Source: an uncultured Nitrospiraceae bacterium
GTDB lineage: Bacteria; Nitrospirota; UBA9217
Length of the DNA: 45,008 bases
Assembly: GCA_964364055.1 (NCBI GenBank)
Contig: CAYILT010000003.1
Location: forward strand, 1 to 45,008
Direction: 5' to 3'
Shown: positions 4,161 through 34,002 of the stretch, piece after piece
How the letters are laid out: every line of letters begins with the position of its first letter
How positions within the stretch are numbered: position 1 is the first letter of the stretch
Made by a program: the position numbers and the translations under genes
The notes under the pieces: generated by a model
Database searches by the model: none
Seen by the model: the letters and a program-made list of their open reading frames with translations, nothing else
What the model was told of the DNA's origin: nothing

Positions 4161-5267
4161 ATGTACAGCGCGGCGAACACAGTATACGGCATCCTGCATG
4201 ACTCTCTTGCCGCCATCGGCATTCCCGGGGCCGTGATCACCCTTGTCGCGTACGCTATCCCCTGCGGCGTGGTGATCGGGATTATCGGCCCGATCGCGGG
4301 CATGCTCACCTACGCGGAGCGCAAGATCTCGGCGGACATCCAGAACCGCGTGGGACCGAACCGCGTGGGGCCCTTCGGACTGCTCCAGTTCCCGGCTGAC
4401 GGGATCAAGCTTCTCCTGAAGGAGGACATCATCCCCGACGCCGCGGACAAAAAGCTCTTCAAGCTTGCGCCCTATCTTGTGTTCTCCTCCACGGTGCTGG
4501 CGTCCCTGGTGATCCCCTTCGGCGGGTCTTTTATCGTGGCGGACCTGAACATCGGGCTCATTTTTATCATCGTGGTGAGCTCTCTTCTGGTCGTGGGGTT
4601 TCTCATGTCCGGGTGGGCGTCGAACAACAAGTGGGCGCTTCTGGGCGGCATCCGCTCGGCGGCCCAGATCATCAGCTACGAGATCCCCACGGCCCTGTCG
4701 CTCCTGACGGTGGTCCTGATCGCCGGCACGTTCTCGATGCAGGAGATCGTCATGGCCCAGGGACCCTGGCCGTGGCAATGGTTCCTGTTTCACAACCCCT
4801 TCACGTTCGTGGCCTTCTTTATATTCTTTGTCTCGAGCCTGGCCGAGATGAACCGGACGCCCTTCGATTTTCCCGAGGCCGAGTCCGAACTCGTCTCGGG
4901 CTACAATGTTGAGTACTCCGGCATGCGTTTCGCCCTGTTCTTTGCCGCCGAGTTCGCAAGCATCTTCATCATCGCCTCGCTGGGCGCCGCCGTTTTCCTG
5001 GGCGGCGGCAACATCGGCATGGACCCCTACGCCAGCGGGCTGGGGTACCAGCTTCTGATGGTCCTCGTCTTCTTTACCAAGGCGATTTTCCTCTGCCTGG
5101 TCACCATCTGGGTGCGCTGGACCCTTCCCCGCCTGCGGATCGACCAGATGCTGTCTCTCTGCTGGAAGTATTTCATCCCCATCGCCTTCGTCTGTCTCGT
5201 GATGACGGCGGCCTGGATGCTTGTCTTCGGCGGCAACGGGATTTTCTGGAGGATGCCGAAGATATGA
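4161..5267 (+). CDS. nuoH: NADH-quinone oxidoreductase subunit H
   Basis: ERKISADIQNRVGPNRVGPFG, ADGIKLLLKE, AEMNRTPFDFPEAESELV, WTLPRLRIDQ. Start codon uncertain. Confidence 0.95.
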   Translation: MYSAANTVYGILHDSLAAIGIPGAVITLVAYAIPCGVVIGIIGPIAGMLTYAERKISADIQNRVGPNRVGPFGLLQFPADGIKLLLKEDIIPDAADKKLFKLAPYLVFSSTVLASLVIPFGGSFIVADLNIGLIFIIVVSSLLVVGFLMSGWASNNKWALLGGIRSAAQIISYEIPTALSLLTVVLIAGTFSMQEIVMAQGPWPWQWFLFHNPFTFVAFFIFFVSSLAEMNRTPFDFPEAESELVSGYNVEYSGMRFALFFAAEFASIFIIASLGAAVFLGGGNIGMDPYASGLGYQLLMVLVFFTKAIFLCLVTIWVRWTLPRLRIDQMLSLCWKYFIPIAFVCLVMTAAWMLVFGGNGIFWRMPKI

Positions 5268-19193: not shown

Positions 19194-19769
19194 CTATGAA
19201 ATGATCCTGGCTGCCTCTTTGAGGAATTCGTTACGATCGTCGGGATTCTCTATTTCGTCTTTCAGGATATCGGTGAGGCGGATGAGGTCTTCCCTTGTGG
19301 CCGGTGACGAGGCGCGCCACTTCTGTTCGATGGTCCGCGAGAACACCTTGGCGCCTGCGGGGCCGATCTGCCTGACCAGCGCCAGTTTGATATTTTCCTG
19401 CGCCGCCGCGGAAACGCCGGCAATCTGCGCGCCGGAAGGCCGGCTGCCGCCCGTGCCCGAATGGGCAGGCACCTCCACGGCCCTGTCGGCCGCCCTGAAG
19501 AACTGGATGATGTCCGCCAGTGGAGGGAGGTTCCCGTCCTGGACGTTCAGCAACACCTCAGGCATGAAAAAGTACTGTGAAAATTCCTGTCCAACCGCCT
19601 GGGCCAGGCACTCCTTTCCTTTCACGCTGCCGCAGGTGACGTGATAGAGCTGTCCTTCACGGAAGAACAGCTTCAACTGCGTATTGGCGCCTTTCACGGC
19701 AATGGAAAGAAGTCCGCTTTTTCCGCTCCGATTGATCTCCGCAATGAATTCTGACAGCCCGGTTTTCAT
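19194..19769 (-). CDS. DUF4388/PATAN-like protein
   Basis: GKSGLLSIAV...KLFFREGQLYH and LVRQIGPAG; paralog of 15016-15555. Confidence 0.6.
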   Translation of the reverse strand: MKTGLSEFIAEINRSGKSGLLSIAVKGANTQLKLFFREGQLYHVTCGSVKGKECLAQAVGQEFSQYFFMPEVLLNVQDGNLPPLADIIQFFRAADRAVEVPAHSGTGGSRPSGAQIAGVSAAAQENIKLALVRQIGPAGAKVFSRTIEQKWRASSPATREDLIRLTDILKDEIENPDDRNEFLKEAARIIS

Positions 19770-19843: not shown

Positions 19844-20212
19844 TTACTTCTGTTTAACGTGCTTTTTGACGGCGATCAGCAGATCGAGGGGTGTGAAGGG
19901 TTTCGTGATGTATTCGGTGGCGCCCTGTTTGAGCCCCCAGGCCTTATCGCTTTCCTGATTCTTTGAGCTTATCATGATGATGGGGAGGCCCTTGAGCTTT
20001 TCATCCGCCCTCAGGTCCCGGCATACCTGAAACCCATTTTTTTTCGGCATGATGACGTCCAGAATCACCAGATCCACCGACTCCGTCCTCGCCTTGTGCT
20101 CGGCTTCCTCGCCATCTACAGCCATAATGACCTCATGGCTAGCCTCTTTCAGGATGTCTTTTATCATGTGAAGTTCGGTAGCGCTGTCTTCTGCCACGAG
20201 TATTTTTGCCAT
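19844..20212 (-). CDS. Single-domain response regulator (PilH/CheY-like)
   Basis: ILVAEDS, LVILDVIMPKKNGFQVCR, GATEYITKP; close paralog of 13682-14047. Confidence 0.93.
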   Translation of the reverse strand: MAKILVAEDSATELHMIKDILKEASHEVIMAVDGEEAEHKARTESVDLVILDVIMPKKNGFQVCRDLRADEKLKGLPIIMISSKNQESDKAWGLKQGATEYITKPFTPLDLLIAVKKHVKQK

Positions 20213-20284
20213 TACGTTCTCCTCCACGCACGGTTCTTTGTTCAGGTAAAGCGCCTGCCCCTGGGAGCGGGTTTATTCTCATCG

Positions 20285-21720
20285 TTATGTCTTCCGTTGG
20301 AAGAGGTCCTGCCTCACCCACACCCAGCACAGGCTTCTAAAGCCGGTGAACGAGGCCCTGATGTCAGGAAGACTCCTGATGCCCAGGACCCTCCGGACGA
20401 GAAAGCGCGGCCGCGAGTAGAATTTCTTGAACGCCATCTGGCGGAGCTGCGTTATCTCGTCCCGTTTCATCGAATAAGGGATGAATGCCGCGCCCTGGTA
20501 GGTATAAGTCGGCAAAGTCCCTGGACCTGGTGCCGTACTGCTCGATATTGTCGTAGAGCTCGGTGCCGGGAAAAGGCGTCGGACAGTGGAAATTGGCTAC
20601 ATCGGGATCGAGTTCACAGGCAAACCTGATGGTCTCCAATCCCTCCTCGAAGGTCTCTCCGGGGATGCCGAAGAGGAAGGGCGTGAACACCGTCAGCCCC
20701 ACATCCTTTGCAGCGCGGACGGCCCTGCGCGTCTGATCCAGCGTGATGCCCTTGCGAATGGCGTTCAGGTTCTTCTGCACGCCGCTCTCGGCGCCGAAGA
20801 GGATGGCCCAGCAGCCCCGCGTCCTTGAACGCTTGAAGCAGGGGCTTGTCCACCTGGTGGACGCGGGCCGAAGCGAACCACGTAATGTCGAGCTTGCGCG
20901 CCTTGATCTCACGGGCGATCCGCATGGCGCGGCCGTAATCAGCGGCAAGGGTGTCGTCAATGAACTTGATCTCGCGGTAGCCCTGGCTCAGGCAATGCTC
21001 GATCTCCTCCATGACGCTCCCGACGCTCCGGTAGCGGATGCCGCTTTTCCGTTCCTTGTCGATCTGGAAACAGCAGAGGCCTTTCCGGTTGCACCCCCGC
21101 GAGGTGATGATGACGGCCACGGATTTTCTCTTATACGTTGCGGGCGGCGGGATATAGCTGTCCGTATCACCCAGAAGCTCCCGCGCCGGGAAGGGCAGGG
21201 CGTCGAGATCCGTGTTCAAGGGACGGTCAGGATTGGCAAGGATGTTCGTTCCCTCGCGGTAGAGCACACCTTTGACGCCGGCCAGGCCCGCGCCCGCGGA
21301 GAGCTGCTCCACCATCTCGGCAACGGTCGCCTCTCCTTCTCCGGTTACGACGGCATCGATGCATGACGCATCCTGCAGACAGTGTTGCTTCGTGGCAATG
21401 GGATAGGGGCCGCCCACGGCAAGGAAGACGTGGGAGAGGAGCAGCTTGATGTCCGATGCGGTAAGACGGGCCTTGGCCCATCCGAAGGCGGTGGAATAAA
21501 TGCCGACAAAGCCGGGATTCCAGACGGAGAGGGCATTCAGGATCTCCGCGTGGGACAGGAAGGCGCCGTTCAGGAACTTCACCGTATGCCCCGCCTGTAT
21601 CAGCGATGAGGCGACATACAACGTGCCGAGGGGCTGCCAGTAGTTGATCTGGGCGGCCGCGGTCTTGGTGGGAAAAATGTCTTCCGGCGTCCAGGAGGGT
21701 ATGATGAGAGCGCATTTCAT
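20285..21720 (-). pseudogene. B12-binding radical SAM protein with two frameshifts
   Basis: One gene split over three frames (WQPLGTLYVA...; ILFGAESGVQ...GIPGET; TYQGAAFIPY). Breaks near 20820 and 20510. The cluster motif reads SRGCNRKGLCC, with the second Cys missing. Confidence 0.85.
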
Positions 21721-23241: not shown

Positions 23242-23703
23242 CTACCGCGCGATCAGCACCGGGATCTCCGCCCGGTTGGCGATCTCCCTGCTCACGCTGC
23301 CCATCATGAGCGTGTGGAGCCTCTTGCCCCTCGATCCGACGATGATCATCTCCGCGCCTACATCCTTGGCCGTCTGGAGGACCTCATCGGAGGGATGCCC
23401 CTGCTTCACGACCGTCTTGATGCCGGTGACGCCCTTCTTGTTCAGCGCCTGCTTGTAGTGCTCCAGGACGGCCTGGGCCTTCTTGTCGAGCGCGTCCTGG
23501 TATGCCGTTCCCTGCAGCTGCTCCTTCAGCGTCGACAGCTCGGCCATGCCCAGCATCTCGTCCATCAGGGACTTGCCCTCGATCTTCTCGACGTACAGCA
23601 GCACGACCGTGTCCGGCCGCGTGCAGGAAAAAAGTCCAGCGAAGGTATCGATGGTCGTCTGTGAGCCCTTGCTGTCATCAACGGCAATGAGAACTGTTTT
23701 CAT
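23242..23703 (-). CDS. Universal stress protein
   Basis: VLIAVDDSKGS, GHPSDEV, IIVGSRG...MGSVSREI. Confidence 0.93.
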   Translation of the reverse strand: MKTVLIAVDDSKGSQTTIDTFAGLFSCTRPDTVVLLYVEKIEGKSLMDEMLGMAELSTLKEQLQGTAYQDALDKKAQAVLEHYKQALNKKGVTGIKTVVKQGHPSDEVLQTAKDVGAEMIIVGSRGKRLHTLMMGSVSREIANRAEIPVLIAR

Positions 23704-23733
23704 TTCGACTCCTTGGAAAATAATGGTAAGGCC

Positions 23734-23949
23734 TTATTTCTCATCCTTGTACAGGTCCTTATAATAGTCCTGTGTCTTCGTGTCAATGCCTTCTACGGAA
23801 TCGCCGGTACTGCCGTAGCCGCCGGATTCCGCGGACTCGAAATAACCGACCTGCACACCGCTTTTCACGGACACCGCGTAGCCCGCAGCGGCTCCGAGGG
23901 TCCAGATGACGGCCGCAAGGAGAATCCAAATTTTTGTTTTCATGCCCAT
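23734..23949 (-). CDS. Small membrane or exported hypothetical protein
   Basis: GGGGAGG RBS, N-terminal hydrophobic helix, GYFESAESGGYG, C-terminal DTKTQDYYKDL. Confidence 0.75.
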   Translation of the reverse strand: MGMKTKIWILLAAVIWTLGAAAGYAVSVKSGVQVGYFESAESGGYGSTGDSVEGIDTKTQDYYKDLYKDEK

Positions 23950-23976
23950 GCCTCCCCGTTATTCATGCTCACTGGC

Positions 23977-24165
23977 CTACTCTTCCTTCAGCAGGTTCTT
24001 GTAGTAGTCCTGCGTCTTCTTGTCCAGCTGTGCGCCTGCCTTGACCTTGTTCGGCCCGCCACCGATGATGCCGGCCTCAACGAACGGCGGCAGACTGTAG
24101 CCGATGAGGAATCCAATGAACCCCATCACGATAACCACCACGATCCAGAACGAACTCTTCATCAC
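23977..24165 (-). CDS. Small membrane hypothetical protein
   Basis: GGGAGG RBS, TM helix ending GYS, C-terminal DKKTQDYYKNL. Confidence 0.75.
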   Translation of the reverse strand: MMKSSFWIVVVIVMGFIGFLIGYSLPPFVEAGIIGGGPNKVKAGAQLDKKTQDYYKNLLKEE

Positions 24166-24197
24166 AACCCCTCCCTGGCGCGAAATTATTCAGCCGC

Positions 24198-24449
24198 TTA
24201 TGCCTTCTTGATCTTCCATGCATATTTGCCGCTGGCCATGCTCTTTTCAATGATGTCGTTTCCGAGGGTCTCGCACATCGCGGAGATCGACTCTCCCGAC
24301 GACGGATTGTCGAAGACCAGCTCGATGACATCTCCCGGTTTCATTTTTTCGAGCGCCTTTTTTGTGTAGATCTGAGGATGGGGGCAAACATATCCCGTTA
24401 CATCCAGTATATAGAGACCTTCACTTTTCTTCTCAAACTTCATTGCCAT
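24198..24449 (-). CDS. TusA/YeeD-family sulfur carrier
   Basis: LDVTGYVCPHP (CPxP) and ELVFDNPSS; immediately downstream of the YeeE gene. Confidence 0.9.
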   Translation of the reverse strand: MAMKFEKKSEGLYILDVTGYVCPHPQIYTKKALEKMKPGDVIELVFDNPSSGESISAMCETLGNDIIEKSMASGKYAWKIKKA

Positions 24450-24474
24450 GGTCGTACCCTCCCTGAGCTAGTTG

Positions 24475-25911
24475 TTAAAGATCGAACGCGGCCATCTCCT
24501 TGGCCATCTTTCGCTCGGTCCACCAGTTGAAGAACTTGACCCCGATATAGGCGCCGCCGATCATCCCGATGCCGAACAGCCAGCCCGACGCATCGCCCAG
24601 GGCAACGCGGGCGAAGAAGGCCCCCACATTGCACCCGAGGCCGAGGCGGGACCCGATCCCCATCAGGAGGCCGCCGATGATCGCCCAGACCGCGAGTTCT
24701 TTTGTGGGCTTCTTGAACTTGAACTCATTGCTGAGCAGCGCCATCACCGCTGCGCCGCCGATAAGTGCAAGCGACATCCAGTCGGCCGGGTTTACGGCGG
24801 GATTGGGTATGCCGTTGTTCAGTCCGAAATAGATATTGTCCATATTGTTCCAGCCGAGCTTGTTGAACACCCAGCCGACCCACTGGGCCTCCTGGGTGGT
24901 GACGTACCAGTAGCCGGGGTCGAAGACCGTGCCGTTCACCGACAAACCGAAATCGTGCCCCAGTCTCGAGAGGAGCGTTCCCGCGTTCCTGACCCCGAAT
25001 TTGATCCGCAGCCCTTCGATCACGAGCATCTGGAGCCCGCAGGCAATGCCCAGAAAGAGGCCAGCGAGGGCCGTTCGTTTCGACGACGCTATCATGCCCC
25101 AGTAACCGGCAAGCTCGTCCCGGAATGTTGCGCTTTTCCCGGCCTGAGTGACCTTTTTTAAATAGTTTTTTCTGACCCAGAAACCATAGACGACCACGAG
25201 CAGCAACGTTGCCGGGAGCACGACGCCGACCAGAAAGTCGCCGATAAATGCGCCCGCAAACGACGCGTCCTTGAATCCGAGCAGCTCGGAGAACTTCACT
25301 ATCGGCTGGTTCCATAAGTAGCCGGCGAGATACTGGTCGACCCATCCGTCGCCGGCGTTGATGGCCGCGGGCAGTTTTTTTGCCAGGGCCGACTCGTGCC
25401 AGGACTGGGGCACGAGTTTGTTGAACCAACCCCCGAGGTCCACGAATGTTGCCTGGGTAACGCTGATCGACAGCACCACGAGCAGGGAGACCCCGTTGCC
25501 CTCGCCGGTCTTGTACAGGGAGCCCGATGCGCAGCCGCCGGCGAAAACCATCCCGACGCCGAAGATGAGCCCCGCGATGGTCGCGGCGATGCTGGTCGGA
25601 GCGGCATGGAACGTGCTCATGCCCGTTGCGGTCACAAAGGCGGAAACGAAGCTGAACAGGACCGTGGCGATCATGATGCCGACGACCATGCGAGGGACTC
25701 CCACCGCAAAGAGGTCCCGGAACGCTGACGCGAAACAGAACCGTCCGTACTGCAGGCACATACCGTAGACAAAGCCGAACCATAAATAGGCCGAAATGTA
25801 GATGTAGTACTCATGGACAGCAAAACTGAAAACGCTGACCATGATCAGGAACCCGACGATGCCCAGCGCCCAGCGTTGGTTCTTTGTTTCCGTAATTGTC
25901 GCCTCGTTCAT
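24475..25911 (-). CDS. YeeE/YedE-family sulfur-compound (thiosulfate) transporter
   Basis: Three family cysteines: GRFCFAS, AGGCASG, GLGCNVG. Start placed at ATG 25911, after a GAGGTGG RBS and downstream of the sigma54 promoter. Confidence 0.9.
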   Translation of the reverse strand: MNEATITETKNQRWALGIVGFLIMVSVFSFAVHEYYIYISAYLWFGFVYGMCLQYGRFCFASAFRDLFAVGVPRMVVGIMIATVLFSFVSAFVTATGMSTFHAAPTSIAATIAGLIFGVGMVFAGGCASGSLYKTGEGNGVSLLVVLSISVTQATFVDLGGWFNKLVPQSWHESALAKKLPAAINAGDGWVDQYLAGYLWNQPIVKFSELLGFKDASFAGAFIGDFLVGVVLPATLLLVVVYGFWVRKNYLKKVTQAGKSATFRDELAGYWGMIASSKRTALAGLFLGIACGLQMLVIEGLRIKFGVRNAGTLLSRLGHDFGLSVNGTVFDPGYWYVTTQEAQWVGWVFNKLGWNNMDNIYFGLNNGIPNPAVNPADWMSLALIGGAAVMALLSNEFKFKKPTKELAVWAIIGGLLMGIGSRLGLGCNVGAFFARVALGDASGWLFGIGMIGGAYIGVKFFNWWTERKMAKEMAAFDL

Positions 25912-25990
25912 TTCCACCTCGTTACCTCCTGCCTGATGATTTCTTGTGTTCCCGTCCGGATACCCTTTGTTAGCGATGTACAACTCTAAT

Positions 25991-26006
25991 TGCAAGGATG
26001 TTGCCA
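25991..26006 (-). promoter_or_regulatory. sigma54 (-24/-12) promoter of the YeeE operon
   Basis: Minus strand reads TGGCAACATCCTTGCA. Confidence 0.8.
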
Positions 26007-26056
26007 TGTTCAATGGTTGAATAAATCAACGATTATTTGATCCAAGGAACAAGACC

Positions 26057-26072
26057 TGTCCAGAACAGGACA
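26057..26072. promoter_or_regulatory. Candidate enhancer site TGT-N10-ACA
   Basis: TGTCCAGAACAGGACA, about 50 bp upstream of the -24 box; near-identical site at 29146. Confidence 0.6.
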
Positions 26073-26084
26073 GCGATAAAATGA

Positions 26085-27779
26085 CTACTGTGCTGTTTCG
26101 GCCAGACAGTTTCTGCTGAAGAGGGTGACAAAAATTTTATACTTAAACACGCCGGTGGAAGACTCGAATCGCTTTACCAGGTCCAGGCTGCCCTGTTGCT
26201 GGTCGATCCCGGGCGGGGCAGCCATGAGAGGTTCGCCGGAAAGGATGGCGACGGGCGCGCAGGCGTCCTGCTCCCGTCCATCATAGTAAGCCGGCCGCCG
26301 GATCTCCCAGGTGAACCTGAGCGGGGACTGCGTGATGGATCTCTTCTCAGGTTGAGCAACAAGCCCGTCGCGATAGATGATCCTTTTCCCCATGTAGAGG
26401 TCCAGGAGCGGGACCGCCATTTCCGTATTGCCCGCGGACCGCGGTTGCGGAAGGGCGTAGACCTCCACACTGTTGCCGTCAAGGGTATCAAGATAGATGC
26501 CGGCATCCCGGAGGTTGACGAGGCTCGTCCTCTCCAGAAACGGCGCATAGGCGCCGAGGGCGATCACCAGCGATGTGGTTACCGCGCACCAGACAATGAA
26601 CAGCCGCACCTCGCGGTTCTTTACTTCCTGGAGCCCGTAGGAAGCCATAAGGGTGAAGAGCGGGGCAAGGGGAAGAAGGTACCGCATTCGTTCATGGTGC
26701 AGGAAGATCACGAAGACCGCGAACCACGCGGGAACCAGAAAACGCGCATCTCTCCTTCTGGTCCCTGCCACGATGCCGACGCCGGCGGCAACGGTCAGGA
26801 ATGGATGGGTCTGAAAAAGGAAGGTTGACAGAAGGCCCTCCTGCCATCGTTTGAGCCCCTCCCATTGATAAGTACGAAGCAGGTCCACCTGGCCCCTGAT
26901 GACATCATACTGCGAAAGGAAAACGATGAGGGAAAGCGCGCCTGCTCCTGCCAGGACCGCTGCAGCGCGTCCGAGGACCACGCGCCGGTCGCTCCTTGCC
27001 GGGACGAGGAGGATGATCAGGAGGGGAAACAACATGATACCAGCGGAATACTTCGAGAAGACGCTCAAAAACAACGCAAGACAGGCACAGCATATCCGGA
27101 ACAGTCCTCCCCGTTCGATGGCGCCCAGATAGGTGAAAATAGCGAGCGTGATGAAGAACATGGTCGGGACATCGGCAAGCATGAGCGATGCCTGCGTAAG
27201 GAGGTACGGGATCCCCAGGAGCAGCAGGCCGGCGGTCACCCCGGTCTCCCGGTTCCAGAGCGTCCTGCCGATATGGTACGTGAGCAGCACGGTCAAGGAA
27301 AAGAGCAGGGTCGCAAATACCTGTATGAATATCCGGGATTCGCCGAGGTACCGGAAGATGAGCCCATAGAGGAAAGGCACAACAGGAAGGTCCGTCCATG
27401 CCCCGATCGCCCGCCCCCATTCCCGGAAAAAGGAGAAGATCCCGTAAAGCTCCAGATGCTTGGCCTGGAGAAAGTACCGGGAAGCATCGATGATGACCTC
27501 CGGTCCCCTCCACAGCGGAAGAACAGCGAGGAACGCGAGGATCGGCAGGACCACGCCGGGAGCACGATCGAGGAGGGTACTGCGGGAGAGATACCAGGAA
27601 ACGACAATGCCGAGCGCGATGAACAGGGTGACCTGCCCGATGGCCGCACCGGGGAAGATCCAGTTCCAGTTCGTGAGCGCGTTCGTATCGAGAAAACGGC
27701 CTATGGACAGCAGGGGGACCGTGAGGAGCGCCGCGAACGCGATGAGCAGTGTTGCATCGGTTTTGTTCAGCCTATTCAC
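26085..27779 (-). CDS. GT-C fold glycosyltransferase (ArnT/PMT_2, GT39-like)
   Basis: Polytopic membrane protein with IDASRYF, DLPVVPFLYG, MLADVP, SKY and RYLLPLAP. Confidence 0.8.
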   Translation of the reverse strand: MNRLNKTDATLLIAFAALLTVPLLSIGRFLDTNALTNWNWIFPGAAIGQVTLFIALGIVVSWYLSRSTLLDRAPGVVLPILAFLAVLPLWRGPEVIIDASRYFLQAKHLELYGIFSFFREWGRAIGAWTDLPVVPFLYGLIFRYLGESRIFIQVFATLLFSLTVLLTYHIGRTLWNRETGVTAGLLLLGIPYLLTQASLMLADVPTMFFITLAIFTYLGAIERGGLFRICCACLALFLSVFSKYSAGIMLFPLLIILLVPARSDRRVVLGRAAAVLAGAGALSLIVFLSQYDVIRGQVDLLRTYQWEGLKRWQEGLLSTFLFQTHPFLTVAAGVGIVAGTRRRDARFLVPAWFAVFVIFLHHERMRYLLPLAPLFTLMASYGLQEVKNREVRLFIVWCAVTTSLVIALGAYAPFLERTSLVNLRDAGIYLDTLDGNSVEVYALPQPRSAGNTEMAVPLLDLYMGKRIIYRDGLVAQPEKRSITQSPLRFTWEIRRPAYYDGREQDACAPVAILSGEPLMAAPPGIDQQQGSLDLVKRFESSTGVFKYKIFVTLFSRNCLAETAQ

Positions 27780-27782
27780 CGG

Positions 27783-28084
27783 TCACAGGATGATGACCTT
27801 GTCCGCCTCCTGGAGCATCGTCGCATTGTCATACTGGCTGCCGCGCACGATCGCTTCGGGATCGCATCGAAGGGAACGCCAAGCCCCTGTGCGCTGTGCT
27901 CACAGAAGCTCATGACGATCTTCTGGCGCGCCGACAGCTCCTTTATCGATGGCTGGCTCAACAGGCGCGTTCCCGCGTCCATGATGAAAATGCTCACCTC
28001 GTGCCCTTTGGAAAGTGCGGCATTGGTGATCCCGAGCACAGCATCGGGGTGGTCGTCCGTATTGACGAGTATTCCCAGTTTCAT
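27783..28084 (-). pseudogene. DsrE-family protein with a -1 frameshift
   Basis: MKLGILVNTD...SKGHEVSIFIMDAG...SFCEHSA. The natural end PEAIVRGSQYDNATMLQEADKVIIL* lies in another frame. Span 302 nt (3n-1). Confidence 0.8.
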
Positions 28085-28305
28085 GTCAGCCGGTCCCTCT
28101 GAACGTGATGTGGTATGATGCTTCCGAACGGTCGCTGCTGCCAGGAAATGACGCTGTTGCTTGAGAATATCAGCTCGACGATCTTGTCGTAGTTCTTGTC
28201 CTTTCTGATATCCACCACGGTGACCGCATGTTCCCGCTTCTGCATATCCAGAATGCATCTGATGGTTGCGTCAGGGTCCTTCTTCATGAGACAGCGAATG
28301 TTCAT
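28081..28305 (-). CDS. Small hypothetical protein (DsrH/TusB-like position), possible stop loss
   Basis: GGAG RBS; YDKIVELIFSSNSVISW followed by an unstructured tail that runs into the next start. Confidence 0.55.
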   Translation of the reverse strand: MNIRCLMKKDPDATIRCILDMQKREHAVTVVDIRKDKNYDKIVELIFSSNSVISWQQRPFGSIIPHHVQRDRLT

Positions 28306-28332
28306 GGCTTGCGCATCTCCTTTGCTTCGTTG

Positions 28333-28607
28333 TCAATAAGCCAGGATATGGTCATAGCCGGGAAGCCGATTCGCGAGCTCTTCCGTCGAACAGAACTCCA
28401 GGTCCGCGTTTTCCGGAAAATTAGTCCCTATCCGCATGTCGAGCTCTCGTAAGGTCTCGATGTTCAGGGTGTTTCCTTCGGTCGCATCCACCGTGCGGTC
28501 CAACACGTATACACGTCGATCACGTCGTCCTTGAGAGTGGCCCCTACGGCCATCCTCAGTGCCTCCTCCTGCCGGTCTCGAACCAATACCGCGATCTTTT
28601 TAACCAT
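28333..28607 (-). pseudogene. DsrE/F-like protein with a +2 frameshift (not in the ORF track)
   Basis: MVKKIAVLVRDRQEEALRMAVGATLKDDVIDV, then a frame change at GTGTATACGTG, then YVLDRTV...ELANRLPGYDHILAY*. Span 275 nt (3n+2). Confidence 0.75.
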
Positions 28608-28704
28608 GTTGTCCTCGCTGACTTCTTCCCCTCAGGTGTTTCCCCGAGCCTGTTCCCTCCGTGCCCGGCAGATCACATGCCGCGGTCCTCTTCCGGTGCA
28701 CCAG

Positions 28705-28739
28705 AAAAAAAAGGTCCGGCATCCCGGAGGATGCCGGAC
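28705..28739 (-). terminator. Rho-independent terminator after the second TusA gene
   Basis: 11-bp stem GTCCGGCATCC/GGATGCCGGAC, 4-nt loop, T8 tail on the minus strand. Confidence 0.8.
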
Positions 28740-28778
28740 GATCCCGGACAGGGAAGGGGGAGAGTGTCGTTATCAAAA

Positions 28779-29006
28779 TCATTTTTGAATTGTGAAATAG
28801 AGCGTTCCGCCCTGTTCAGTCGTTTCGAGAAGGGTATATCCCCGATGCGAGCAGAGCGCCGGGATACTTTCCTTGGCGCCCGCGTCGTTCGTGATGACTG
28901 AGAGGATCTGGCCATGGTCGAGCTTGGCCATGGTCGTCTCGATCACGATCGCCGGCCGGGGCTGCACCAAACCTTTAATATCAAGGGTCTTATCCGCATT
29001 TACCAT
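28779..29006 (-). CDS. TusA-family protein lacking the CPxP cysteine
   Basis: ADKTLDIKGLVQPRP...GQILSVITND...YFTIQK. Confidence 0.8.
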   Translation of the reverse strand: MVNADKTLDIKGLVQPRPAIVIETTMAKLDHGQILSVITNDAGAKESIPALCSHRGYTLLETTEQGGTLYFTIQK

Positions 29007-29075
29007 GACCAAACCCTGCCCGTGCGCGGTCAACCTGTTCTGCCGATCCACCAGTAGCCTTTCAGTAGTAACTAT

Positions 29076-29092
29076 AGCAAGGGCGGTGCCAA
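29076..29092 (-). promoter_or_regulatory. sigma54 (-24/-12) promoter
   Basis: Minus strand TTGGCACCGCCCTTGCT matches TGGCAC-N5-TTGCW. Confidence 0.88.
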
Positions 29093-29145
29093 AGCCATAA
29101 CCAGCCGATAAACTTGAATATCGCTTTTTTCACGGCTTGCGGACA

Positions 29146-29161
29146 TGTTCCAAACAGGACA
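29146..29161. promoter_or_regulatory. Candidate enhancer site TGT-N10-ACA
   Basis: TGTTCCAAACAGGACA, about 55 bp upstream of the -24 box. Confidence 0.6.
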
Positions 29162-29207
29162 TCAGCGTGGTGAGCGTTGTCCCGATTGCTCCAGCGGTCC
29201 TAAAATA

Positions 29208-29237
29208 TTGCATTCTTTGTACCTTCCTGTGTATAAT
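29208..29237 (+). promoter_or_regulatory. sigma70-like promoter of the sensor operon
   Basis: TTGCAT-N18-TATAAT, ending 5 nt before ATG 29243. Confidence 0.55.
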
Positions 29238-29242
29238 GACCC

Positions 29243-30895
29243 ATGCAACGGCTGCTCCTCCTCGTTCTGACCGCAGCATTCTTTTTCTGCTCCGCAGCAG
29301 CGGATGCTTCCCCGGAGAAAGCGAGGCTCTCTTCGCACCTGACGTCGGATGCCGCCACCCCTCTTGTATTCATCATATTGCCCGTCGAAAATACGCGCGT
29401 CGTATATGAGAAGTTCCTGCCACTCAAGGACTACCTTGAGAAAGCGATCTCCCGCACGATCATTCTCCGGATAGCCCGGGATTACCAGGAAGCAATCCAC
29501 GAAATCGGTACCGGCGAAGCCCAGCTTGCCTACCTCGATCCTTCAGCCTACTGCGAGGCGCGCTTTCTGCACCGGGTCGTCCCGCTGGTCAAAACGATAC
29601 GGAACGGATCTCCGACCTATCGCAGCGTGATCGTTGCGCGGAGCGATTCCGGGATCCGCAAGATCATTGAGGCCAAAGAAAAGCGGGTCGCCTTCGGCAA
29701 CAACAGCTCGTCCTCGTCCTATCTTATCCCTGCCGTCATGTTCAAGGAAGTCGGGATCAGCCTCTCGGCGTTCTCGGCCGTCGATTACCTCGAGCAGGAG
29801 GACCGGATCGCGCTCTCGGTCCTGGCAAAACGCCATGACATCGGCGGCATGAGCGAGCGCGTTGCGCGAAAGTACCTCGGTGACGGCCTGTCGATCATCA
29901 ATGTATCCGAACCGATCCCCCAGTATACGCTCAGCGCCGCCGCGGGACTGCCGGCGGCCCTTCAGAAGAGCATCCGCAGGGCATTGTTGTCCGTCGGAAA
30001 GGACCGCTATCCGGCCCTGATCGCGGCCATGAAGGACATTGACGGTTTCGCGCCGGTGGAAGACCGGGAGTTCGATGTCGTGCGGGTGATGATCAAGAAC
30101 CTCACGGGGAAGAACTACCTTTCCTATCCGAAGAACGTGATCAAGGTCGCCATTCTTCCGCTCTACTCGGCGATCACGCTCTTTGAACGGTTCGATCCGC
30201 TCATGCGGTATCTCACCGGGAAGACGGGCCGGGAGTTCAGGCTCGTGATCCCCAGGGACTTCGAGGCTTTTTTCGAGACCGTCGCGCGCGGCGAGGCGGA
30301 TTTTTCCTATTCCAATCCCTACATCTATATTCAGCTCGCCGACAAGGGCTATCTGACGGCCTTCGCCAATACGGTCATAGAGGCCTCCGGCGATATTTTC
30401 CGCGGCATCATCATCACGCACCGGGACAGCGCGATCAGGACCATCGAGGACCTCAAAGGCAAGCGCGTCATGGTCGTCTCGTATAAGTCGGCGGGCGGAT
30501 TTCTGGCGCAGAAATTGCTTTTGAACGAAAACCTGATCGATGTGTTCAAAGACCTCAAGCTTTCCGAGGGAAAGCGGCAGGAAGAGGTCATCCTGAACGT
30601 GTACCGCAAAAAGGTGGATGCCGGGTTCGTCCGGGAATCGGCGTTGGAGGTCCTGAAGGAGGAGATCGACCTGAGTGAGATCAGGACCATTGCCGCGACA
30701 CCCTATATCGCGAACTGGCCGTTCGCGGCGGGCAAGAGGACCAACGGGAAAATGGCCGAGCTGGTCAAGCAATATCTTCTGGACCTCACCGACCGTCGGG
30801 TCCTGACCGCGGCCGGGATCAAGGGATTCAAGGCCGCCGGCGACGGGGATTTTGACGCTCTGCGGAAACGGATACGGCAACATGAAAACCACTAG
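29243..30895 (+). CDS. Periplasmic binding protein with two PhnD-like (phosphonate-bd) domains
   Basis: Signal peptide and two homologous halves (FLPLKDYLEK...YRSVIVAR...SSSSYLIP and FDPLMRYLTG...FRGIIITH...SAGGFLAQ). Confidence 0.85.
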   Translation: MQRLLLLVLTAAFFFCSAAADASPEKARLSSHLTSDAATPLVFIILPVENTRVVYEKFLPLKDYLEKAISRTIILRIARDYQEAIHEIGTGEAQLAYLDPSAYCEARFLHRVVPLVKTIRNGSPTYRSVIVARSDSGIRKIIEAKEKRVAFGNNSSSSSYLIPAVMFKEVGISLSAFSAVDYLEQEDRIALSVLAKRHDIGGMSERVARKYLGDGLSIINVSEPIPQYTLSAAAGLPAALQKSIRRALLSVGKDRYPALIAAMKDIDGFAPVEDREFDVVRVMIKNLTGKNYLSYPKNVIKVAILPLYSAITLFERFDPLMRYLTGKTGREFRLVIPRDFEAFFETVARGEADFSYSNPYIYIQLADKGYLTAFANTVIEASGDIFRGIIITHRDSAIRTIEDLKGKRVMVVSYKSAGGFLAQKLLLNENLIDVFKDLKLSEGKRQEEVILNVYRKKVDAGFVRESALEVLKEEIDLSEIRTIAATPYIANWPFAAGKRTNGKMAELVKQYLLDLTDRRVLTAAGIKGFKAAGDGDFDALRKRIRQHENH

Positions 30896-32504
30896 GCTTA
30901 CGCTCGGGCTTAAGTTCTCGATGGCCGTGACGGCGCTTATCGGGTTCACCATGTTCGGCGTGGCGTCGCTGATCATCAACTTCCAGAAAGAGTCGCTGCG
31001 GCAGAACACAGCGGAGAGCAATCTCGACATGACGAGGAACCTCGCTCATGACGCGGCCGGCGCGCTGCTGGTGTTCGACCCGCTTCGGCTCGATGAGCTG
31101 GTAAACACGGTCCCCGGCGTTGCAGCCACGGCCTACGCCCTGATCGCCGACAGCGGCGGTGTGATCGCGGCGCATACGAAACGGTCCTCCCTCGGCTCAC
31201 TTCTGGGACCGCTGAATTATCCGGGACTCGCCGATGCTCTGGTGGATGGCAGGGAGCTGGCGAGAGAGTACCAGCACGAGAACATGCCGGTCAAAGAGTT
31301 CTCCGTTCCCATCAAGATCGGCAGCAAGGTGCTCGGACTTGCGACGATCGGCTATTCGTTGAACGCAATTGATGCCGCGATCGAAACCCGGATCAAGAAT
31401 CTCAGGGCGTACATCTATTTGATCACCGGGATCATGCTCCTCGGCGGCATTGCCGGCGCTTTCCTGGTCTCCAATTTCCTTACGAAACCTCTCCGGAGGC
31501 TGAAGGACAGGATGATCGATGTCCAGACCGGCAACCTCAACGTCGAGGTTGAAAATCCCCGCATCGTAAAGTGCTGGGAGCGGCTGGGTTGCGACAAGAA
31601 GGAATGCCCCTCATACGGAAAGGTGCGGTGCTGGGCGACCGCCGGGACCTTCTGCCATGGAGCGGTCCAGGGCGCCTTTGCGCAGAAGATCGGGGACTGC
31701 CGGAACTGCGTTGTGTATAAGGAATCCTGCGGTGACGAGATCCAGGAGCTCGTGGAAGTGTTCAACCAGATGGTGAAGGACCTTAAGCACAACCTGAAGG
31801 AACTGGAGAAGGTGAATACGGAAAAATCGAGGATGGAGCGGCTGTCCGCCCTGGGCGAGATGGCGACGACGGTCGCCCACGAGACAAGGAACCCGCTCAA
31901 CTCCATCCGCCTGGCGGCGTCCTACCTGAAAAAGAACTTCCAGGGCGAGATCCTGAGCGAGTTCCTCTCGATCATTGAAGAAGAGGTCATGCGGCTGAAC
32001 GAGATCACGTCCGACTTCCTCGGGTTCTCGAAGCCCGCTCCGCTCAGGATGAAAACGACCGATATCAACGCCATCGTGAAATCCACGGTGGAGCTTGTCC
32101 GGCAGGAGGCGACGGACAGGAACATCGAGGTCATCATCCTGACGGACGAGCACGTACCTCCGGTCCCGTGCGACTTTTCACGGATGAAACAGGCGATCCT
32201 GAACCTCTTGCTGAACGCCATCGATGCGTCGACCGCGGGCGACACCATTATCATCACCACCGAGGCCGCGGGCGCTTGGTTGAACCTGTCCGTCCAGGAT
32301 TCGGGGCGGGGGATCCCGCCGGAAGACCTTGAAAATATCTTCAAACCCTTCTATACTACCAAAACACGCGGATCGGGCCTCGGCCTCGCCATCGTCGACC
32401 GCATCGTGAAGGAACACAAGGGAGAGATCGCCGTGGAGAGCGCTGTGGGTAAAGGGACAAAACTTACCATAATGCTTCCGGCATACGAACATGCAGGAAT
32501 ATAA
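30882..32504 (+). CDS. Sensor histidine kinase with a Cys-rich (two-CW-like) insert in HAMP
   Basis: Two TM helices; H-box AHETRNPLNSI, N-box LLNAIDA, DSGRGI, FYTTK, GSGLGL. Confidence 0.93.
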   Translation: MKTTRLTLGLKFSMAVTALIGFTMFGVASLIINFQKESLRQNTAESNLDMTRNLAHDAAGALLVFDPLRLDELVNTVPGVAATAYALIADSGGVIAAHTKRSSLGSLLGPLNYPGLADALVDGRELAREYQHENMPVKEFSVPIKIGSKVLGLATIGYSLNAIDAAIETRIKNLRAYIYLITGIMLLGGIAGAFLVSNFLTKPLRRLKDRMIDVQTGNLNVEVENPRIVKCWERLGCDKKECPSYGKVRCWATAGTFCHGAVQGAFAQKIGDCRNCVVYKESCGDEIQELVEVFNQMVKDLKHNLKELEKVNTEKSRMERLSALGEMATTVAHETRNPLNSIRLAASYLKKNFQGEILSEFLSIIEEEVMRLNEITSDFLGFSKPAPLRMKTTDINAIVKSTVELVRQEATDRNIEVIILTDEHVPPVPCDFSRMKQAILNLLLNAIDASTAGDTIIITTEAAGAWLNLSVQDSGRGIPPEDLENIFKPFYTTKTRGSGLGLAIVDRIVKEHKGEIAVESAVGKGTKLTIMLPAYEHAGI

Positions 32505-33843
32505 TATTCTCGTCGTGGATGACGAAAAGAACATCCTGAAGATCGTTTCAGCCACTTTGAAAAAAGAAGGCTACGGGGTCGAGACCGCCCAGTCCTCGGA
32601 GGAGGCGATCGAAAAGTTCGGGCGGGGCGATTACCATCTCGTCATCACGGACCTGAAGCTGCCGGGCAAGACGGGGATCGAGCTGCTGGGATATATCAAA
32701 TCCAGGGATGCCGATGTCCCGGTCGTCGTCGTCACGGCGTTCGGCTCCATTGAAAACGCCGTCGAAGCGATGAAAAAGGGCGCCTTCAACTACCTGACCA
32801 AGCCCGTCAATGCCGACGAACTGCTCTCCGTCGTCAAAGAGGCCCTGGAAAAGTACGAGCTGAAGCGGGAGAACATCGCCCTCAAGTCGGAGCTGAAGGA
32901 GAAATACACCTTCAGCAACATCATCGGGAAGTGCGCTCTCATGCAGGAGGTCTTTCATACCATCAGCATGGTCGCCAGGACCCAGTCGAACATCCTTGTC
33001 GCCGGCGAGAGCGGCACGGGCAAGGAACTGGTCGCCCGGGCCGTTCACTACGGCTCCGATCGGGCAGGCGGACCGTTCGTCACCATCGACTGCGCGGCCA
33101 TTCCCGCGGAGATCATGGAGAGCGAGCTCTTCGGCCACGAGAAGGGCTCGTTCACCGGGGCCCATGAAAAGAAGCTGGGACTCCTGGAGCGCGCGAACGG
33201 CGGCACGGTCTTCCTCGACGAGATCGGCGAGCTCGACCTGAACCTCCAGAAGAAATTGCTCCGCTTCCTTCAGGAACGGGAGATCCTGCGGGTGGGCGGG
33301 AGCGGCAGGATCAAGCTCAACGTGCGCATTGTGGCCGCGACGAACAAGGACCTGGAGCAGGAGGTCGGGGCGAAGCAGTTCCGCGAGGACCTGTTCTACC
33401 GGCTGAACGTCGTGACGATCAAGATGCCTCCCCTGCGGGAGCGCAAGGACGACATCCCTCTCCTGGCCCAGCATTTTCTCGAGAAGATGAACCGGATCGA
33501 AGGAAAACACATCCAGGGAATCGATGATGCCGTGGTGAACGCGTTCCTCCGCTATGAGTGGCCGGGAAACGTGCGGGAACTGGAGAACACCATCGAGCGG
33601 GCGTATATTCTTTGCCCCACGGTCACGATCGGCCAGAAATACCTGCCGGCGAAGCTCGCGCTCCCGGCGCAGGACGAGCGGGGAGTGTTCGACCAGATGA
33701 ACCTGATCGAGACGGAAAAACGGCTGATCGTCAAGGCGCTGAACCAGACATCCTGGAACCAGAGCAAGGCCGCCGAGGTCCTGGGGATCACCCGGAAGCA
33801 GCTCAGGACGAAGATGAAGAACCTGGAACTGCTGCCCGAGTGA
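32491..33843 (+). CDS. sigma54-dependent response regulator (NtrC/Fis family)
   Basis: REC domain, GESGTGKE, ESELFGHEKGSFTGA, FLDEIGE, WPGNVREL, Fis-type HTH. Confidence 0.96.
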   Translation: MQEYNILVVDDEKNILKIVSATLKKEGYGVETAQSSEEAIEKFGRGDYHLVITDLKLPGKTGIELLGYIKSRDADVPVVVVTAFGSIENAVEAMKKGAFNYLTKPVNADELLSVVKEALEKYELKRENIALKSELKEKYTFSNIIGKCALMQEVFHTISMVARTQSNILVAGESGTGKELVARAVHYGSDRAGGPFVTIDCAAIPAEIMESELFGHEKGSFTGAHEKKLGLLERANGGTVFLDEIGELDLNLQKKLLRFLQEREILRVGGSGRIKLNVRIVAATNKDLEQEVGAKQFREDLFYRLNVVTIKMPPLRERKDDIPLLAQHFLEKMNRIEGKHIQGIDDAVVNAFLRYEWPGNVRELENTIERAYILCPTVTIGQKYLPAKLALPAQDERGVFDQMNLIETEKRLIVKALNQTSWNQSKAAEVLGITRKQLRTKMKNLELLPE

Positions 33844-34002
33844 ACCCCGTTAGAGAACATCGTTCTCTAACGATACAGGATTGTGGCTTTAAACCACAAT
33901 CTGAAAAATGATAGGTGCCGCCGACGGGAGCCGGCGGCTTTCTCTAGCGGGGTGAACGTATCAATCCCGTCCCTGCCGCACGGTTCACGGCGCGTCTGCC
34001 GC

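Follow-up and report, generated by a model that had tools for sequence, protein, structure and literature searches.

TspR is the sigma-54 regulator of the sox-II cluster of Acidithiobacillus caldus; the accessible part of a review gives its site as TGTCCCAAATGGGACA and models the TspS/TspR pair as thiosulfate-responsive (PMC6335251), and the available portion of a second paper assigns an sCache_3_2 domain to TspS (PMC12194929). The A. caldus pair carries the locus tags A5904_2484 and A5904_2485 (PMC12936845). The AioX-AioS-AioR system, as described in the accessible text, comprises a binding protein, a kinase and a regulator acting at an RpoN promoter (PMC5908839). The tetrathionate sensor TtrS and the thiosulfate sensor ThsS both use a PhnD-like (PF12974) periplasmic domain, according to the part of the source at hand (PMC5408782). 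Among sulfur genes, the YTD cluster (yeeE-tusA-dsrEFH type II) has been reported from Nitrospirota and Desulfobacterota, and the accessible part of that report describes no regulator of these genes, using 'sigma' 0 times and 'regulat' once (PMC13293266). YeeE and YeeD (TsuA and TsuB) are presented as a thiosulfate uptake pair in the available section of another paper (PMC11073785). In Acinetobacter baumannii, yeeE-yedE is assigned to the repressor BigR and not to the sigma-54 activator FisR, and no sigma-54 or two-component control of YTD or yeeE genes was found in the searchable literature. In this study, we analysed the window, that is, the entire 45,008-base contig CAYILT010000003.1 (C3) of an uncultured Nitrospiraceae bacterium, which carries genes for a binding protein, a kinase and a sigma-54 activator divergent from a string of YTD-type genes with two sigma-54 promoters.

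The locus probably encodes a switch of the TspS/TspR type that has three components, depends on sigma-54 and responds to a sulfur compound, a reading in which we place fairly good confidence. The assembly has 3,681,804 bases in 445 contigs and is 89% complete; the nearest kin of the window are metagenome-assembled genomes of Nitrospirota/Thermodesulfovibrionia, rpoN was found in the same assembly on contig C66, and dsrA is also encoded. The regulatory elements and regulator genes are given below; L numbers denote loci of relatives.

25991..26006, minus strand (26006->25991): sigma-54 promoter TGGCAACATCCTTGCA upstream of yeeE, from pattern match and conservation
26057..26072, no strand: proximal site TGTCCAGAACAGGACA, 10/10 to TGTCC-N6-GGACA, 50 nucleotides (nt) upstream of the -24 element (T of TGGCA)
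26089..26104, no strand: distal weaker site, 8/10, 32 base pairs (bp) from the proximal site, overlapping the last codons of the GT39-like gene
29076..29091, minus strand (29091->29076): sigma-54 promoter TGGCACCGCCCTTGCT upstream of tusA2, from pattern match and conservation
29146..29161, no strand: proximal site TGTTCCAAACAGGACA, 9/10, 54 nt upstream of the -24 element (T of TGGCA)
29178..29193, no strand: possible distal half-site TGTCCCGATTGCTCCA, 7/10, 32 bp from the proximal site, also in L002
29243..30895, plus strand: periplasmic binding protein of 550 amino acids (aa) with two tandem PhnD/PtxB-like domains, Pfam Phosphonate-bd E 6.7e-109 in 2 stretches
30882..32504, plus strand: sensor histidine kinase, sCache_3_2-HAMP-HisKA-HATPase by Pfam, sCache_3_2 E 1.9e-12
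32491..33843, plus strand: NtrC-type regulator, REC-Sigma54_activat-HTH_8 by Pfam, Sigma54_activat E 3.5e-70
33917..33938, plus strand: terminator-like hairpin past the regulator gene, from the terminator scan

Both promoters are near-consensus and stand before yeeE and tusA2, as an earlier reading of the DNA, made from the letters alone and called here the sequence-only reading, had proposed. In the window, the pattern TGGCA-N6-TTGC matches only at these 2 promoters, where 0.30 matches would be expected, and 2 matches were reached by 4 of 100 shuffles. That reading had also placed a near-identical palindrome 50-55 bp upstream of each -24 box, and palindromes of the form TGTYC-N6-GGACA were found at 50 and 54 nt; these are predicted sites of the TspR type (TGTCC-N6-GGACA). 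In its exact form, the motif of that reading has just 2 copies in the assembly, and both belong to this locus. As in systems of the AioXSR type, the targets have predicted RpoN promoters, here with conserved upstream sites. On our reading of the sequence, the half-site TGTCCCGATTGCTCCA overlaps a sigma-70-like -35 box of the regulator operon, where the scan gave a promoter-like match, TTGTCC-18-TAAAAT, at 29177-29206. A second pattern, TTGCAT-18-TATAAT within 29207-29245, was read by eye and is absent from the scan listing; only 5 nt separate its end from the start codon (ATG) of the gene for the binding protein, which would mean a leaderless or very short-leader transcript of the regulator operon.

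Conservation was assessed in a set comprising the window and 15 related loci (L001-L015) with binding proteins 60-80% identical, 233,715 bases in total; these loci are kin, and counts over them are not independent events. A sigma-54 promoter was present at the tusA2 side in all 13 sources holding the region, and 9 of these 13 promoters have a site of at least 9/10 at 50-54 nt upstream. Each of the 7 second promoters has a site of at least 9/10 plus another 31-32 bp further upstream. The yeeE promoter itself recurs as an identical or near-identical element in L002, L003 and L013, with the proximal site kept at 50-51 nt. Across the set, 20 of the 33 sites of at least 9/10 fall in the 1.4% of sequence that lies upstream of the 20 promoters, and the sites stand out as conserved islands because the surrounding intergenic DNA is unalignable. 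The motif is therefore kept in orthologous promoters; its loss there was one of the outcomes that the sequence-only reading had named beforehand as refuting it. The sites lie beside the regulatory module in the window, in 11 of L001-L015, and also in L022-L024, L026 and L028-L030; among other genomes of the phylum, L026 keeps the full gene order, and L028 and L029 have the same arrangement.

The genes behind the sites vary among relatives. A site pair and sigma-54 promoter lie downstream of tusA2 in L005 and precede a thioredoxin-like gene, soxX, soxY, soxZ, soxA, soxB and a gene for a SoxT-like transporter; the same pair and promoter precede the thioredoxin-like gene in L010, where the contig ends, and the module of L030 is flanked by the same sox genes. 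As in TspS/TspR, the module would drive soxXYZAB in L005 and L030, judging from gene order and sites. The module is thereby tied to thiosulfate oxidation in some relatives, and in others to the yeeE, tusA, dsrEFH and rhodanese genes. An unaltered copy of the 16-mer TGTCCCAAATGGGACA was found in L022, and 3 complete genomes of family f16 (L034, L035, L036) have a single copy each. In these genomes it is the only perfect site, and the genes behind it encode Usp and a secreted protein that ends in a TauE/SafE half-domain. In family f11, the site is likewise ahead of a Usp gene and a secreted TauE/SafE half-domain protein.

Two arrangements in these relatives were recorded separately. In the f11 loci L023 (14661-16000) and L024 (14750-16000), a site and a sigma-54 promoter lie downstream of the regulator and precede genes for a CheY-like receiver and a membrane protein resembling a chemoreceptor N-terminus, which hints at a link to taxis. 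In L003 (5938-7586), the yeeE-type promoter and sites stand directly before a CheY-like REC gene and a second gene; the pair is near-identical to the window genes at 19844-20227 and 19194-19769, as if the yeeE-to-radical-SAM block were missing. The yeeE homologue of L009, a long contig from another metagenome-assembled genome, matched in several frames and the record is apparently frameshift-rich, so its gene content was used and its reading frames were not.

Genome-wide, 487 sigma-54-like matches were found, and only 3 are intergenic with a site of at least 9/10 at 41-54 nt, namely, the two in the window and one at C206:4484. On contig C206, a perfect site (4427-4442) with a weaker site 32 bp upstream is followed by the sigma-54-like promoter at 4484, which precedes a gene for a secreted or periplasmic double rhodanese and then a membrane-protein gene whose full-length relative falls in the Cons_hypoth698 (YeiH-like) family. 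Rhodanese and Cons_hypoth698 genes share a locus with yeeE in L004, L006, L009, L011, L028 and L029. The regulon is thus not 'self-contained', as the sequence-only reading had termed it, with a third site pair and promoter on C206 and 25 strong sigma-54 activator domains in the assembly. Two further candidates of the scan were rejected: the one on C340 (1692 and 1761) lies inside a 735-aa coding frame, and C42:2763 has only 2 nt between site and 'promoter'.

The divergent binding protein, kinase and sigma-54 activator of the sequence-only reading were borne out by Pfam. The three genes lie in tandem with overlapping ends, and the kinase start codon at 30882 was set from orthologues. The kinase shares the sCache_3_2-HAMP-HisKA-HATPase_c arrangement with TspS, as far as the accessible text describes the latter, and the regulator shares REC, AAA+ and HTH_8 with TspR. 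The site consensus given in the accessible part of the review is also the same; the comparison with TspS/TspR was made by domain architecture and site. The locus differs from TspS/TspR in belonging to another phylum, in a Cys-rich insert in the kinase HAMP region, in a separate two-domain PhnD-like protein, none being mentioned for TspS in the available text, and in targets that are yeeE, tusA, dsrEFH type II and rhodanese genes rather than sox; no sox genes were found within the window.

With AioXSR, as well as ArrX and ArxX, the locus shares a PtxB/PhnD-like protein encoded with a kinase and a regulator, and AioX (E 1.7e-6) and ArrX are among the PDB relatives of the binding protein, together with PtxB and HtxB. 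It differs from AioXSR in that PtxB, not AioX, is the best solved match and that sulfur genes, not arsenic genes, are targeted; the binding protein has two tandem domains, seen as two Phosphonate-bd stretches, where AioXSR-type systems have one domain specific for an arsenic oxyanion. Domain 1 is nearest to the phosphite binder PtxB, and domain 2 aligns with profile positions 9-244 of the NCBIfam TtrS model (E 2.2e-13), within its sensor portion. Whereas TtrS and ThsS have the PhnD-like domain fused to the kinase, the locus encodes it as a protein apart from the kinase, which carries an sCache domain of its own. TtrR and ThsR are not known to be sigma-54 activators. Neither the TspS/TspR nor the AioXSR precedent had been recognised in the sequence-only reading. 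Of 301 genomes sampled across the phylum, 50 were found to encode the two-domain binding protein; they represent 26 of 121 genera and cluster in three families. Families f16 and f28 both include complete genomes with the module. NCBIfam gave no equivalog for the regulatory proteins, the GT39-like protein or the dsrEFH-like proteins.

The Cys-rich insert lies in the cytoplasmic HAMP region of the kinase (window 31560-31730, residues ~227-283). Seven of its cysteines are invariant and an eighth occurs in 14 of 15 orthologues; no family match was found in Pfam or NCBIfam searches, and the insert may be a metal, Fe-S or persulfide-sensing module. Across 27 orthologues, among them those from f16 and from L030 with its sox genes, the helix of the regulator's helix-turn-helix (HTH) domain is almost unchanged. 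Complex prediction for the mature binding protein with the periplasmic domain of the kinase gave a score of 0.46, and the best of 3 controls gave 0.00; contacts agreed between runs at 94% or more, and partner pLDDT (predicted local distance difference test) was at least 85. Of 157 solved complexes, 116 attained the pass mark, and so did 2 of 215 mismatched pairs; at scores up to 0.60, it was attained by just 18 of the 157 solved complexes and by both of the passing mismatches. The model therefore weakly supports a contact between the binding protein and the kinase periplasmic domain.

We infer the binding of the regulator to these sites, the signalling from binding protein to kinase, the ligand and the operon limits, and the switch would work as follows. 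The secreted two-domain PhnD-like protein would capture a periplasmic sulfur oxyanion, thiosulfate being the likeliest and sulfite the next, and the loaded protein would signal to the sCache_3_2 domain of the membrane kinase, which would phosphorylate the NtrC-type regulator. The regulator would bind TGTCC-N6-GGACA, usually at two sites, a strong proximal one and, 31-32 bp upstream of it, a weaker one, and from ~85-120 bp upstream of the start point would drive open-complex formation at sigma-54 promoters. The tusA2 promoter would serve tusA2, the terminator, the broken dsrEFH type II genes and the GT39-like membrane protein; the yeeE promoter would serve yeeE, the YeeD-like tusA1, the small protein and usp; and the C206 promoter would serve the periplasmic double rhodanese and the YeiH-like transporter. 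The target genes of the window are listed below.

28779..29006, minus strand: TusA2, TusA fold with Gln replacing the CPxP cysteine, Pfam TusA E 2.1e-16
28714..28739, minus strand (28739->28714): intrinsic-terminator-like hairpin, 11 pairs (8 G-C) then T8, directly after tusA2, the top scan match
28333..28607, minus strand: CHP1, first small dsrEFH type II partner, its frame split where 2 bases are inserted near 28506, from alignment to L002
28081..28305, minus strand: CHP2, second small dsrEFH type II partner, stop changed to CAG adding 19 residues relative to L002, no Pfam match above cut-off
27776..28084, minus strand: dsrE type II-like gene, 1 base deleted near 27861, Pfam DsrE, from alignment to the intact L002 gene
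26085..27779, minus strand: GT39/PMT_2-like polytopic membrane protein, Pfam PMT_2 E 4.3e-11
24475..25911, minus strand: YeeE/YedE-family membrane transporter, 478 aa, Pfam Sulf_transp E 2.6e-39
24198..24449, minus strand: TusA1, YeeD-like, CPHP cysteine motif, beside yeeE, Pfam TusA E 1.2e-19
23734..23949, minus strand: small protein of 71 aa with an N-terminal hydrophobic stretch, no Pfam family
23242..23703, minus strand: universal stress protein, end gene of the yeeE string, Pfam Usp E 1.3e-21, syntenic in L002, L004, L006 and L026

In the direction of transcription, the minus-strand order is tusA2, CHP1, CHP2, dsrE, GT39, yeeE, tusA1, the 71-aa protein and usp, and the string is interrupted by the hairpin after tusA2 and by the second promoter between the GT39-like gene and yeeE. 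The likeness to the YTD cluster, which the sequence-only reading had pointed out, was right: the gene set (tusA2, CHP1, CHP2, dsrE, GT39, yeeE, tusA1) is present. The cluster differs from the YTD cluster in being split by the GT39-like gene and the second promoter, in that the tusA beside dsrEFH lacks the CPxP cysteine, and in that dsrE and CHP1 are frameshifted and CHP2 has lost its stop. The catalytic cysteine of TusA2 is missing in 14 of 15 orthologues, and L004 alone keeps it. The GT39-like gene is a conserved member of the tusA2 string, syntenic in L002, L003, L004, L008, L009, L011, L013, L014, L015, L026, L028 and L029. As in the YeeE/YeeD pair, the gene next after that for the Sulf_transp membrane protein encodes a small TusA-like protein that has the CPxP cysteine. 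The pair differs from TsuA/TsuB in missing the NCBIfam equivalog cut-offs: the YeeE here (478 aa, against TsuA profiles of 330-348 positions) scored 102.5 against a cut-off of 400 and 69.9 against 645, and TusA1, with 30 bits against a TsuB/YeeD cut-off of 147.5, is by that score not a YeeD equivalog. The 71-aa protein is kept downstream of yeeE/tusA1, sometimes duplicated, in L002, L006, L009, L011, L026, L028 and L029.

The sulfur 'relay' proposed in the sequence-only reading is compromised, with TusA2 lacking its CPxP cysteine and dsrE and one partner gene frameshifted. We hold it somewhat probable that the tusA2-dsrEFH branch is a decaying remnant in this population, in which the promoters persist and the sulfur-transfer function is lost. 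Two frameshifts and a lost stop codon lie within 0.8 kilobases (kb), in comparison with L002, where the dsrEFH type II genes are one open frame each; they are also matched full-length in L026, and CHP1, a single intact 90-aa frame in L002, is matched in L008 by tblastn pieces that abut in frame. The dsrE gene keeps an active-site-type Cys, and its C-terminus is out of frame. Contigs assembled independently from 4 runs in 3 studies show 0 differences and 0 gaps over both frameshift sites, at a depth of only ~5 and with one run that may be the source sample. Since three studies share the sequence, the dsrE and CHP1 breaks are probably real, and with ~10 kb of neighbours intact (yeeE, GT39, binding protein, kinase, regulator), the branch looks genuinely degraded. 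Against decay, tusA2 and the GT39-like gene are intact and both regulatory elements are perfect. Such a loss would concern one branch only and would not conflict with the regulatory model.

Besides these contigs, all 4 runs contain a separate contig of 468-475 nt at a depth of 12-41 that matches only the 44 bases at window 28558-28601, with 4 differences, and then diverges; it probably belongs to an abundant relative sharing the start of the first dsrEFH-like gene. A search for RNA runs covering 27700-29300 found none. Elsewhere in the window, a radical-SAM-like gene at 20364-21720 on the minus strand appears split over overlapping frames (20614-21720 and 20364-20960), as judged from translations only, and this is probably another frameshift.

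Several observations weigh against the proposed switch. No SoxY was found in the assembly at its 89% completeness. Four of the 13 tusA2-side promoters (L005, L010, L011, L014) have no site of at least 8/10, and in f16 a distance of 21-51 kb separates the site from the regulator genes. When 3 or fewer mismatches are allowed, the motif of the sequence-only reading was found 3 times in the window against 1.61 expected, which is not above chance. The strong terminator after tusA2 makes co-transcription of the genes past it uncertain, and the ligands of the binding protein's nearest solved relatives are phosphite, arsenate and arsenite rather than sulfur compounds. Because the assembly holds 25 activator domains, the regulator is assigned to the sites by conserved adjacency and the TspR parallel only.

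The sulfur-oxyanion signal named in the sequence-only reading is plausible given the oxyanion-binding relatives, the TtrS-like domain 2, the sox neighbours in relatives and the TspR site, and thiosulfate or sulfite is the likely ligand. The same architecture might respond to a signal other than thiosulfate, whether sulfite, tetrathionate, polysulfide, or cytoplasmic sulfane sulfur or redox state acting via the Cys-rich HAMP insert; this is a serious contender, if not the expected outcome. The targets include a protein of the TauE/SafE (sulfite-exporter) family in f16 and a transporter of the sulfate-exporter family, domain 2 of the binding protein matches a tetrathionate sensor, and the 7 invariant cysteines are cytoplasmic. 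Domain 1 is closest to PtxB, and phosphite resembles sulfite in shape and charge. Thiosulfate is favoured by the sole characterised system with the same site and kinase type, which is modelled as thiosulfate-responsive, and by Sox, YeeE/YeeD and rhodanese, which act on thiosulfate according to the accessible parts of the cited literature.

A more elaborate version of the switch would make the kinase a two-input sensor, with periplasmic thiosulfate or sulfite, read by way of the two-domain binding protein and the sCache domain, as one input and cytoplasmic sulfane sulfur or redox state, read by the eight-Cys HAMP module, as the other; TusA2 would then be a feedback or adaptor protein and not a sulfur carrier, and the whole would be a portable switch. 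Beside the regulator genes, the Cys-less TusA2 is the most constant first target, and its gene ends ahead of a strong terminator. We regard this version as speculative and rather improbable.

It is quite unlikely that the palindromes are bound by another sigma-54 activator, or by a protein that is not an activator, with the adjacent two-component system controlling other genes. The number of activator domains in the assembly, the distance of the site from the module in f16 and the position of the third site, near a different hybrid kinase on C206, would suit such a binder. It is opposed by the adjacency of module and sites in the window and in the related loci named above, by an HTH helix that is near-invariant wherever the site consensus is kept, and by the assignment of the same site, in the accessible text, to TspR with its same domain architecture. 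That the inverted repeats are transcript features, such as a terminator hairpin of the GT39-like gene, is highly improbable: the scan gave a weak terminator-like hairpin at 26073->26056, immediately beyond the stop codon of the GT39-like gene, but its tail is T-poor, the half-sites are conserved in sequence beyond mere pairing, the spacing to the -24 element is fixed, and the motif also occurs in divergent intergenic regions where nothing is terminated (29146-29161 and C206:4427-4442).

There is precedent for the type of regulator, for the site and for the logic of three components; the link of a TspSR-like, AioX-like module to YTD genes appears undescribed, since the searchable papers describe no regulator. 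Whether YTD genes mark sulfur disproportionation or reverse sulfur oxidation is under debate, and with a readable sensor, activator and site, the sulfur compound that induces them becomes testable. Members of the regulon become predictable from sequence in uncultured Nitrospirota, and the module is a candidate thiosulfate or sulfite biosensor. The site is apparently conserved from an acidophilic proteobacterium to Nitrospirota while its targets change, thereby providing an example of regulon re-wiring. If the two-input version were true, the module would be a portable thiosulfate switch, found from Acidithiobacillia to Nitrospirota and re-wired to sox, YTD or sulfite exporters.

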